Part shown: piece after piece, positions 41,407 to 42,383 of the stretch
How positions within the stretch are numbered: the stretch's first letter is position 1
Layout: each line of letters begins with the position of its first letter
NCBI GenBank assembly: GCA_965372745.1
Contig: CBDVDM010000001.1
Location: 52,330 to 116,329, forward strand
DNA length: 64,000 bases
Source of the DNA: an uncultured bacterium
GTDB taxonomy: Bacteria; Planctomycetota; Phycisphaerae; Sedimentisphaerales; Anaerobacaceae
Direction: 5' to 3'
The notes under the pieces: model-generated
Databases searched by the model: none
Seen by the model: only the letters and a program-made list of their open reading frames with translations
What the model was told of the DNA's origin: nothing
Program-made: the position numbers and the translations under genes

Positions 41407-42138
41407 TTATGTGTTTTCTTCATCTGCCATCGCATCAGATAGCGCTCTCGCAATTTTTCTTATGCTTGAGGTAGCGGTATTTACTGCGACTTTGTCAGAG
41501 AGCGATGGACTAAAACGCTCTACTTCTTTCTTAGTGACTCCATGCCAAACTGGCAAAATTACTTTCTTCCCTTCAATTTCTCTAGTAACTAACCCGTTCA
41601 ATTCATACTGGGGCCAATTCTTAGCAAAGAAATTCTTCGACAAAATAATCACCCCAAATCGGGAGAGTCGAAGTCCGCTATCAATGGCATGCCTAAGACT
41701 GTCGCCAACTTTCAACGAAAACTCATCAAACCACACACTGAATCCGAGTTTCCCAAGTTCTTTCGCCAATGGGCGAGCAATATCATTCTTGTCTTCACTA
41801 GCATGGCTGATGAACACATCATAGCCAACATCTTGTGGCGCCTTTTTCGATGTCCGAAAATCGTCAGCCATCATGCGTAGCATTAAGCCGATATGCATAG
41901 AAAACGCTTCGTCGGCAGAGCGAAAAACTCTCTTACTGTATAAATTCATTGGAGTGTTGCCACCCACGACCCACCATGCTGGATCCTTCTTGTCAGTCGT
42001 TCGCACTGAAACAACGATGTCACTCCGTCCCAACAGAGTAAATCGCTCTGCAAAACGCACAGAAGTGACCTGCGTGTGCGCCTCTATTTCTACATACTCT
42101 TTAACATGTTGGATAAATGTCTTTAAGTGGATTCCCAT
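41407..42138 (-). CDS. TIR-domain protein with unrecognised ~100-aa N-terminal domain
   Basis: An AGGTGA RBS lies 9 nt upstream. TIR motifs are present: YDVFISHASEDK, FSVWFDEFSLKVGDSL, FGVIILSKNFFAKNWPQYELNGL (Glu in the W..EL position of NADase-type TIRs) and KKVILPVWH. Confidence 0.85.
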   Translation of the reverse strand: MGIHLKTFIQHVKEYVEIEAHTQVTSVRFAERFTLLGRSDIVVSVRTTDKKDPAWWVVGGNTPMNLYSKRVFRSADEAFSMHIGLMLRMMADDFRTSKKAPQDVGYDVFISHASEDKNDIARPLAKELGKLGFSVWFDEFSLKVGDSLRHAIDSGLRLSRFGVIILSKNFFAKNWPQYELNGLVTREIEGKKVILPVWHGVTKKEVERFSPSLSDKVAVNTATSSIRKIARALSDAMADEENT

Positions 42139-42154
42139 GATCTTTTTTCACCTA

Positions 42155-42178
42155 ACAATGATTATACAGTCTGTATAA
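42155..42178 (-). promoter_or_regulatory. dyad-symmetric operator/promoter-like site upstream of the TIR gene
   Basis: The site is ACAATGATTATACAGTCTGTATAA (arms TTATACA/TGTATAA). On the coding strand it reads ...CTGTATAATCATTGT, so it contains a TATAAT hexamer ~23 nt before the start codon. It matches the site at 42384-42407 at 21 of 24 positions. Confidence 0.55.
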
Positions 42179-42205
42179 AACGGGAAACACAGATTGTTTC
42201 TTTCT

Positions 42206-42352
42206 TTATAAGAAGTTCCCGTTGCTTCTTGTTCGCTTGCGTTTAACCTTGATTGAGAGGTCTTCGCCGATTTTGCGAATAGTCCTTCTAACTGTGTCGT
42301 ACGATACGTTGCATTGAGCAGCGATCTCACGAAAGTCAAGCAAATCGTTCAT
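42206..42352 (-). CDS. small helix-turn-helix protein (48 aa; not in ORF track)
   Basis: I translated this from the minus strand: MNDLLDFREIAAQCNVSYDTVRRTIRKIGEDLSIKVKRKRTRSNGNFL. A GAAAGGG RBS lies 8 nt upstream. An alternative ATG at 42358 adds MR. The HTH-like core is FREIAAQCNVSYDTVRRTI, followed by a basic tail. Confidence 0.55.
   Translation of the reverse strand: MNDLLDFREIAAQCNVSYDTVRRTIRKIGEDLSIKVKRKRTRSNGNFL
42207..42230. repeat. 24-bp direct repeat (copy 2; copy 1 at 41233-41256)
   Basis: TATAAGAAGTTCCCGTTGCTTCTT is identical at both sites. Internally it forms the hairpin AAGAAG-n9-CTTCTT. This copy encodes the last codons and stop of the HTH gene. Confidence 0.9.
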
Positions 42353-42383
42353 ACGCATTACCCTTTCATTATCCTTGAAGTCC

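Follow-up and report, generated by a model that had tools for sequence, protein, structure and literature searches.

A one-gene N-domain–TIR protein in a putative integron-type cassette of an uncultured planctomycete

The window analysed here is a 64,000-nt stretch of contig CBDVDM010000001.1, from an uncultured bacterium of the Planctomycetota (assembly GCA_965372745.1). Its minus strand carries a gene for a 243-aa protein that joins an N-terminal domain without recognised relatives, here called the N-domain, to a C-terminal domain of the Toll/interleukin-1 receptor (TIR) type. The gene lies in a small accessory patch marked by repeats, with a much shorter open reading frame (ORF) directly upstream, and the genes around the patch are ordinary housekeeping genes by NCBIfam. 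A first-pass annotation of this DNA had proposed a two-gene module in which a small helix-turn-helix (HTH) protein controls the TIR protein. We find that the 243-aa ORF is a real, strongly conserved single-gene TIR protein, and that the two-gene module amounts to adjacency on one genome. The repeats suggest that the gene is probably an integron-type cassette.

The N-domain–TIR protein and its relatives

The peptide strings that the annotation had quoted from the 243-aa ORF (MGIHLKTFIQHVKEYVEIEAH, WWVVGGNTPMNLYS and NWPQYELNGL) are all present in its translation, and residues 106–216 match Pfam TIR_2 (E = 3e-20) and TIR (2.8e-13), confirming the TIR domain claimed there. The glutamate of the W..E motif, said to be the one used by NAD-cleaving TIR domains, is E179, which is invariant in the family alignment of 24 homologues. 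Compared with its three closest DNA relatives (loci L003, L004 and L005), the gene shows a dN of 0.09–0.15 and saturated dS, indicating strong purifying selection.

Comparison of the TIR domain with PDB sequences by phmmer retrieved AbTir, BtTir, PdTIR and BtpA at E-values of 1e-40 to 1e-50 (1e-50 for AbTir), with 56–59% identity to the TIR domains of AbTir (~58%) and BtTir. Foldseek recovered the same AbTir/Tcp clade, with TM(target) of 0.84–0.90 and 50–59% identity, and Pfam, phmmer and Foldseek agree on this fold. Six residues of AbTir, namely G174, S176, K202, W204, E208 and W227, are required or contact NAD according to mutagenesis or structure (Manik et al.). They correspond here to G145, S147, K173, W175, E179 and W198, none of which varies in the family alignment, and the protein accordingly has the catalytic glutamate (E179), the aromatic residue equivalent to W204 (W175) and the intact BB-loop (G145, S147) of the clade. 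The BB-loop KVGDSLR is identical to that of AbTir and the K-x-W-xx-x-E motif is kept, with T205 of AbTir replaced by proline. Judged by these residues, the TIR domain is of the AbTir type, retains every catalytic or NAD-contacting position and is a predicted NADase.

AlphaFold 2 (AF2) models the N-domain with a pLDDT of 90 as a helix, three to four strands and a further helix, i.e. alpha-beta(3-4)-alpha. As the annotation had stated, the domain is unrecognised by sequence: it has no Pfam match even at E ≤ 10, nor any match by sequence profile against PDB. Foldseek, suggested there as a check, found no significant structural neighbour. Against PDB, the best E-value was 0.18, with TM < 0.45, which is not significant and reflects a loose alpha-beta3-alpha topology resembling that of double-stranded-RNA-binding domains; against the viral BFVD collection, the best E-value was 0.01, with TM < 0.5, and no match was significant. 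Assignment to DUF1883 was rejected, as the N-domain profile, compared by hhalign with a DUF1883-TIR protein, gave a probability of 0.5%.

In a profile search against 1.84 billion cluster representatives, the N-domain was found in 197 clusters, with W55, W56, G59, G60, T62, P63, H82, G84 and R88 invariant in its alignment. It occurs alone (~90–140 aa) or fused to a TIR domain, to a ~200-aa helical domain with CxxC..CxxC or to a recombinase Zn-ribbon, indicating that it is a reusable module. Fusions of the helical and Zn-ribbon kinds are found in proteins P0161, P0166, P0189, P0191, P0202, P0244, P0204 and P0139. The ~200-aa helical partner has a conserved AWD[FY]..[NS]..THS motif and its CxxC..CxxC at the C-terminus; it has no Pfam or PADLOC match, and it is possibly an alternative effector family using the same sensor. 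The N-domain, unnamed, without a structural match and common to other C-terminal modules, is new here.

Among 5.8 billion proteins searched, 3199 homologues of the TIR protein were found, of which the best 120, of ~240 aa, span 92–100% of the query at 58–95% identity. Full-length relatives occur in genomes and metagenome-assembled genomes (MAGs) of more than 15 phyla in the GTDB taxonomy, including Planctomycetota, Chloroflexota (Dehalococcoidia, Anaerolineae), Nitrospirota (Nitrospira), Ignavibacteriota, Bacteroidota, Omnitrophota, Gemmatimonadota, Patescibacteria, Desulfobacterota, Campylobacterota and others; the hosts are free-living bacteria of sediment, groundwater and reactors. As viral contigs carry TIR-only relatives and nothing full-length, the complete family is not evidently phage-borne.

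We surveyed the neighbours at 32 independent homologue loci by all-against-all clustering of ORFs up to 6 kb away and found no recurrent family. The 114 flanking proteins (two genes on each side) are a mix of housekeeping and accessory functions, in which no Pfam or PADLOC family appears more than twice. The absence of a conserved neighbour indicates that the TIR gene is a one-gene unit. PADLOC also detected no ThsA-like, CBASS, STING or Argonaute partner among the 54 ORFs of the window, where its matches are generic (e.g. sigma-54 activators, SNase). The annotation had noted that the window lacks partners of Thoeris, CBASS, SPARTA and STING systems; they are missing from the 32 loci too, and its proposal of a self-contained protein, with an N-domain and a catalytically intact TIR domain, is borne out. 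The finding that exactly this one-gene architecture is spread through many phyla is new.

Table 1. Features of the TIR locus and related repeats, in window coordinates (a slash within a sequence marks the putative recombination junction)
Feature	Residues	Position	Strand	Basis or remark
N-domain–TIR protein gene, 243 aa		41407..42138	(-)	ORF; Pfam TIR_2/TIR; PDB matches; AF2 models; dN/dS
N-domain	1–~92	41863–42138	(-)	
Low-confidence linker	92–104			AF2 models
TIR domain	~105–240	41419–41826	(-)	
Codon of catalytic Glu179	179	41602–41604	(-)	
GTTAGGT, R'-type core site (GTTRRRY), putative 5' boundary of the TIR cassette		42150..42156	(-)	G 18 nt before the ATG
TGTATAAT, extended -10-like motif		42161..42168	(-)	Within repeat; read from sequence
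attC-like repeat copy 2, best preserved		42153..42252	(-)	Between small ORF and TIR gene; overlaps 3' end of small ORF
Orphan 50-aa ORF, weak HTH-like signature		42206..42358	(-)	C-terminal 'basic tail' encoded by repeat copy 2
Partial attC-like 3' end (TTATGCAGATTGCATAATCATTG/T)		42384..42407	(-)	Upstream of small ORF
Degenerate attC-like site		41180..41395	(-)	Downstream of TIR gene; conserved core 41228–41270
Third copy of attC-like repeat		62642..62735	(-)	Directly 3' of ORF 62746..63624 (-)

The small upstream ORF

A small ORF does lie directly upstream of the TIR gene on the same strand, as the annotation had reported, with 50 aa from an ATG at 42358 and not the 48 given there; an alternative GTG start at 42385 would give 59 aa. 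Its assignment as an HTH protein did not hold, since it produced only sub-threshold Pfam matches to many HTH families (best E 7e-4, 20 bits against cut-offs of 21–35). Two public contigs that are identical to the window carry no gene call for the ORF, and the search of 5.8 billion proteins returned no homologue, not even the ORF itself, in agreement with the missing gene calls. In the survey for pairing, tblastn found it on the two identical contigs alone and in none of the 32 other TIR loci; neither the ORF nor the unique DNA of its segment had a relative in ~200 fetched loci at the protein or DNA level. Comparison with a phage collection gave only matches at E ≥ 0.06, to Ant-like or DNA-binding ORFs. 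Without a gene call, a homologue or recurrence, the 'two-gene module' reduces to the adjacency of two ORFs on one genome.

Part of this ORF is itself repeat sequence. Its stop codon (42206–42208) falls inside repeat copy 2 (nhmmer match 42153–42231), where its last codons read ..RSNGNFL, and the string ..SNGNFL recurs in a spurious ORF across another copy of the repeat. As the ORF starts ~26 nt after the partial attC 3' end, a cassette-type junction, it may be what remains of a small cassette ORF. A palindrome-containing 24-nt repeat, with copies at 42155 and 42384, closely precedes each of the two ORFs; these palindromes were rejected as operators, being the hairpin part of the attC-like repeat. 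With no homologue, no occurrence elsewhere and a partly repeat-derived sequence, the ORF lends no support to the repressor or antitoxin model of the first-pass annotation, and the recurrent pairing of both genes that a toxin–antitoxin-like pair implies was not seen in homologous loci.

The attC-like repeats and the cassette context

The patch is repeat-bounded, as had been noted before. An exact 24-nt repeat, reading TATAAGAAGTTCCCGTTGCTTCTT on the plus strand, flanks the TIR gene at 41233–41256 and 42207–42230 (none expected in shuffled sequences), and a third copy with three mismatches occurs at 62678. What escaped the annotation is the probable identity of these repeats as cassette-boundary sites of a recombination type, and of the TIR gene as an integron-type cassette. 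Copy 2, between the two ORFs, is detected by nhmmer over 42231..42153 (E = 1.6e-23), aligns with other copies of the repeat and has a DNA fold z of -2.85. The sequence before the TIR start reads ..TGTATAATCATTG/TTAGGTGAAAAAAGATCATG, with the GTTRRRY boundary that is expected of a cassette shortly before its start codon. Just before the G/TT junction lies TGTATAAT, a perfect extended -10 that is conserved in the repeat family and that a promoter consensus scan did not list because it has no -35 match; by its sequence, it could drive transcription of each downstream cassette, including the TIR gene.

From upstream to downstream on the minus strand, the patch comprises the partial attC 3' end (42407–42384), the mini-cassette with the orphan ORF, copy 2, the TIR cassette (G/TTAGGT at 42156), AACTAAC (41395–41389) and a degenerate attC that ends in GTTAATC (41186–41180) and abuts a convergent membrane-protein gene, whose stop codon it overlaps. 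The hairpin of the partial 3' end shows compensatory changes relative to copy 2. AACTAAC, after the TIR stop, is R''-like and differs at one position from the complement of GTTAGGT in the same cassette, and the core of the degenerate site was matched by nhmmer at 41270..41228 (5e-8). Degeneration of this downstream copy implies that the TIR cassette may no longer be mobile.

The repeat family is lineage-specific, and a metagenome scan located its core (AASCAACGGGAACTTSTTATA) on at least 120 contigs, from sediment or the subsurface (loci L083–L202). Aligned copies share a ~90-nt element ending in ..CTGTATAATCATT/GTTAGRY, past which the sequences are unrelated: information content is ~0 from three nt after the GTT, GTTRRRY is present in 42/79 copies, and a co-oriented ORF (≥50 aa) starts a median of 21 nt after the GTT junction. 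The full element measures ~90–130 nt and has a long form and a short form, the latter without ~33 nt between two TTATACAG repeats. By the nhmmer model, the copies form arrays, as integron cassettes do, with up to five co-oriented copies per contig at a spacing of 0.2–1.6 kb; three arrays were inspected, and each spacer held one co-oriented ORF. In L138, a cassette begins with GTTAGC and has GCTAAC after its stop, as would be expected of a circularisable cassette. Only at the TTATACAG/CTGTATAA hairpin do compensatory variants occasionally occur, or other hairpins take its place, and some copies contain nested hairpin insertions such as GTCCGCCATAGGCGGATAA and ACGCCAGAGGCGT. We dropped the AACGGGAA/TTCCCGTT and AAGAAG/CTTCTT stems as functional helices because they vary on one side only. 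The 24-nt repeat superficially resembles a tRNA-derived att site, and also an FRT- or dif-like site, but the array and junction data fit attC better. On sequence grounds, the family appears to be an atypical attC-like repeat, conserved in sequence and with a built-in promoter motif, not described before.

Homologues of the TIR gene elsewhere also lie at cassette-type boundaries. GTTAG[GA][CT] occurs within 60 nt upstream of the start in 10/33 homologue loci, compared with a background of 4.3% (p about 9e-7), and RYYYAAC follows just past the stop in 8/33. Three loci (L006, L011 and L015) have textbook attC sites, e.g. GCCTAAC..(hairpin)..GTTAGAT. DNA homology with the L003 gene (85% identical) sets in at or adjacent to GTTAGGT, ~21 nt ahead of the ATG, and upstream of that boundary the window and L003 carry unrelated elements. 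In L032 (1–3000), an integrase-like gene of 425 aa lies immediately upstream of the TIR homologue in the same orientation; the best NCBIfam model for its product is the integron integrase TIGR02249 (3e-53), ahead of XerC and XerD. On either side of the L032 TIR gene lie direct repeats of ~100 nt whose termini are inverted (AATGGGGGACAG..CTGTCCCCCATT), and this locus is a candidate for a complete integron whose first cassette is the TIR gene. In L019 (Omnitrophota MAG, 2470–3480), two tandem copies resembling a tRNA 3' end (..GGTTCGAACCCTGG..) precede the TIR homologue and an apparent tRNA gene start follows it, which suggests a different, tRNA-associated insertion context.

Several results weigh against a cassette origin or a defence role. 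No IntI-like ORF is present in the 64-kb window, and no integron integrase was found on the mostly short repeat-bearing contigs, the one recombinase seen there (L145) matching XerA/XerC/XerD best; the integrase of L032 scores 181 bits against a curated NCBIfam cut-off of 265. RNAalifold found no covariation-supported consensus or long hairpin for the repeat, whose R''-like box (..GGGAAC) deviates from RYYYAAC, and complementarity between the cassette heptamer and its own R'' was weakly positive (10/76, control 4.9 ± 2.2). Downstream of the TIR gene, the site has a degenerate 3' half and its DNA fold is not significant (z = -0.57). Finally, neighbours of the homologues include a type I methyltransferase, DpnI-like, PD-T4-6, DRT and PDC candidates, but defence genes are not clearly enriched. 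Without an integrase in the window, the patch is at best a relic cassette array resembling a cluster of attC sites lacking integron integrases (CALIN). We accordingly describe the repeats as attC-like and the patch as such a relic, infer that an integrase was required, and regard it as probable that the TIR gene is an integron-type cassette, starting at G/TTAGGT, in an integrase-less relic array between Planctomycetota housekeeping genes.

Other features of the window touch on this patch. The third repeat copy (nhmmer 62717..62645, 6e-12) shares the terminal 15-mer TCGGTGTTAATCCGT with the 41.2-kb copy, and suggests a second solitary cassette-like insertion. The 292-aa product of the adjoining ORF (62746..63624) has a hydrophobic stretch at its N-terminus that by eye resembles a signal peptide, a second hydrophobic segment and a stretch rich in Glu and Lys, and matches no family. 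The membrane protein beside the patch (40451–41185), DUF975/GPDPase_memb-like in relatives, has 244 aa, eight more than most homologues (236 aa), its stop codon lying inside the terminal GTTAATC. Its closest relatives (75–84% identity) are in non-syntenic contexts without the repeat, so that no clean pre-insertion site was recovered. A second, unrelated dispersed repeat of ~30 nt (TCTCTGTGAACTCTGTGCTCTCTGTGGCTGA) occurs at 42563–42595 and, inverted, at 62465–62497 and 62021–62050, in the intergenic stretches adjoining both patches with the attC-like repeat. An Rfam scan of the whole window found no RNA family, indicating that the repeats are not a known RNA.

Proposed function and comparison with known systems

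The most likely function, by analogy, is that of an SpbK-like single-protein abortive-infection NADase. This proposal builds on the domain composition, the conservation of catalytic residues, the absence of partners and the cassette-type context established by the analysis. The TIR protein would normally be inactive and probably transcribed from the extended -10 within the upstream repeat. Binding of a trigger by the N-domain, most plausibly a multimeric phage component, would cluster the TIR domains head-to-tail into a composite active site around Glu179 and Trp175. Cleavage of NAD+ would yield nicotinamide and ADP-ribose (ADPR) or a cyclic ADPR (cADPR) isomer, and NAD+ depletion, with or without a cADPR signal, would arrest growth of the infected cell. 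We assign a probability of roughly 60% to this explanation as a whole, in which a one-gene N-domain–TIR unit is carried on a cassette, acts by an SpbK-like mechanism and adjoins an orphan ORF. A more far-reaching version is tentative and, in our judgement, rather doubtful: the N-domain would be a new infection-sensing module reused with at least two other effector-like domains, its combination with an AbTir-type TIR a new single-gene abortive-infection system spread by cassettes across more than 15 phyla, and the promoter-carrying repeat of this Planctomycetota lineage an atypical class of recombination site, possibly served by a non-canonical recombinase.

Other functions have to be weighed against this one. 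That the small HTH protein represses the TIR protein, or is its antitoxin, gains some plausibility from two adjacent and co-oriented ORFs, weak HTH-like matches, similar palindromes upstream of both and an ORF that, ~26 nt past a cassette-type junction and with a plausible ribosome-binding site, could be translated. Yet it has no homologue in 5.8 billion proteins, the 32 TIR loci or the ~200 fetched loci, lacks a gene call on identical contigs and has HTH matches that are all under Pfam cut-offs; its last codons lie inside the repeat, with ..SNGNFL also in the spurious ORF over another copy, and the palindromes belong to a repeat found upstream of unrelated ORFs on at least 120 contigs. These conservation data largely refute an HTH-repressed toxin, which we consider essentially excluded. 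Alternatively, the cassette might be the sensor half of a Thoeris-like system, its product activating an effector encoded elsewhere in the genome. PADLOC ThsB models do match the TIR domain (2.8e-42), AbTir, the closest characterised relative, makes 2'cADPR, both 2'cADPR and 3'cADPR activate ThsA effectors, and ThsB-like cassettes with a second gene are known in mobile integrons; but no SIR2, SLOG, Macro or recurrent partner is present in the window or beside the 32 homologues, from more than 15 phyla, and a lone cassette crossing phyla would seldom meet a matching unlinked effector, so we judge this unlikely. Equally unlikely is a role outside defence, as an enzyme that decaps NAD-capped RNA or acts in NAD metabolism, a Tcp-like effector against eukaryotic TIR signalling or a selfish toxin stabilising the array. 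AbTir-type TIR domains strip nicotinamide from NAD-capped RNA, according to PMC10937652, the close structural relatives BtpA/TcpB are described as immunosuppressor effectors, and TIR cassettes of plant-associated integrons have been interpreted as effectors against host immunity. Nevertheless, the hosts here are free-living bacteria of sediment, groundwater and reactors from many phyla, the neighbours include no recurrent secretion partner and no conserved antitoxin, and conflict systems are the more typical setting for a dedicated N-domain that is highly conserved and also occurs with other effector-like C-termini.

The repeats, for their part, might be dispersed promoter-bearing intergenic repeats, or resemble repetitive extragenic palindromes (REP) or miniature inverted-repeat transposable elements (MITE), without being recombination sites, in which case the TIR gene arrived by another route. 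The lack of an integrase in the window and on the repeat-bearing contigs agrees with this, as do the absence of a conserved long hairpin in RNAalifold, with conservation of sequence and not of structure, and the presence of a perfect extended -10 and of nested hairpin insertions, as miniature repeats typically have. It does not account well, however, for conservation that stops at G/TTRRRY, strictly co-oriented arrays with one ORF per spacer, the GTTAGC start and GCTAAC end of the L138 cassette, the same TIR 5' untranslated region following different upstream elements from a junction at or adjacent to GTTAGGT, or homologues elsewhere in canonical attC contexts, and we think it improbable. We therefore retain the explanation by an SpbK-like cassette gene.

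Should the protein be an autonomous NADase activated by a trigger, it would be among the smallest TIR immune modules known, and its N-domain would add to the few sensor domains open to mechanistic work, with the 4-helix bundle of SpbK as precedent. Spread of a single cassette across distant phyla (58–95% protein identity) would fit the view of integrons as libraries of defence genes and extend it to uncultured environmental lineages. The locus also illustrates that small ORFs and 'operator-like' palindromes beside accessory genes can stem from attC-type repeats, and that conservation should be checked before they are called regulators.

Single-protein TIR defence, defence cassettes in integrons and closely related TIR enzymes are already known. 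In SpbK of Bacillus subtilis, a ~94-aa N-terminal sensor docks on the multimeric phage portal and clusters the TIR domains head-to-tail into an active site (PMC12847820). The 243-aa protein shares its layout of a ~90–100-aa N-terminal sensor, a flexible linker and a C-terminal TIR NADase within ~240–270 aa, and by analogy would likewise need no partner gene and be activated by TIR clustering. Differences lie in the N-domain, a 4-helix bundle in SpbK and alpha-beta-alpha here, and in the carrier, an integrative and conjugative element for SpbK and a putative cassette here; since SpbK is absent from the PDB sequence matches, its TIR domain is not a detectable close relative. The closest TIR domains are those of the AbTir/BtTir/PdTIR/BtpA-TcpB 'Tcp' clade (PDB 7UWG, 8G83, 7UXR, 3H16 and 4LZP; 50–59% identical, TM about 0.85–0.9). 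AbTir, whose NADase activity depends on self-association and yields 2'cADPR, has a coiled-coil N-terminus, whereas the 243-aa protein has an unrelated, unnamed alpha/beta domain.

The best PADLOC match is the candidate PDC-S66 (3.7e-69), also a single gene with an N-domain and an AbTir-type TIR domain, although it is itself just a candidate system and only the TIR part matches (residues 96–237 to profile positions 139–280 of 282), not the full length. Plasmid-borne DUF1883-TIR proteins have the same single-gene architecture and a matching TIR half, with an N-domain unrelated to the one described here. On the Klebsiella pneumoniae plasmid pK5880C-HI3 (L213; NZ_MW307890.1, 107239–108789), such a gene is divergent from a second TIR-domain gene and a resolvase, near ISEcp1, qnrS1 and blaLAP-2; its relatives occur on 383 plasmid records, mostly of Enterobacteriaceae. 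Thoeris ThsB has the same TIR NADase/cyclase fold, and its HMMs match the TIR protein, but the linked ThsA-type effector of Thoeris types I–IV (SIR2-SLOG, Macro-TM, caspase-like and others) is found neither in the window nor in the 32 loci.

Defence systems are documented on integron cassettes, some of them ThsB-like TIR cassettes, and TIR cassettes have already been noted in environmental integrons. Like the defence-carrying cassettes of mobile integrons (bacteriophage-resistance integron cassettes, BRiCs) and of sedentary chromosomal integrons ('biobanks'), the element described here combines a compact gene with GTTRRRY-type junctions and attC-like repeats, related copies of which form co-oriented arrays, and TIR or ThsB-like genes are among the cassettes reported. 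Unlike them, the window lacks an integrase, and the repeat is of an unusual type, conserved in sequence, whose R'' box is non-canonical and which carries its own -10. With its degenerate site downstream of the TIR gene, the patch resembles a CALIN or pseudo-attC relic.

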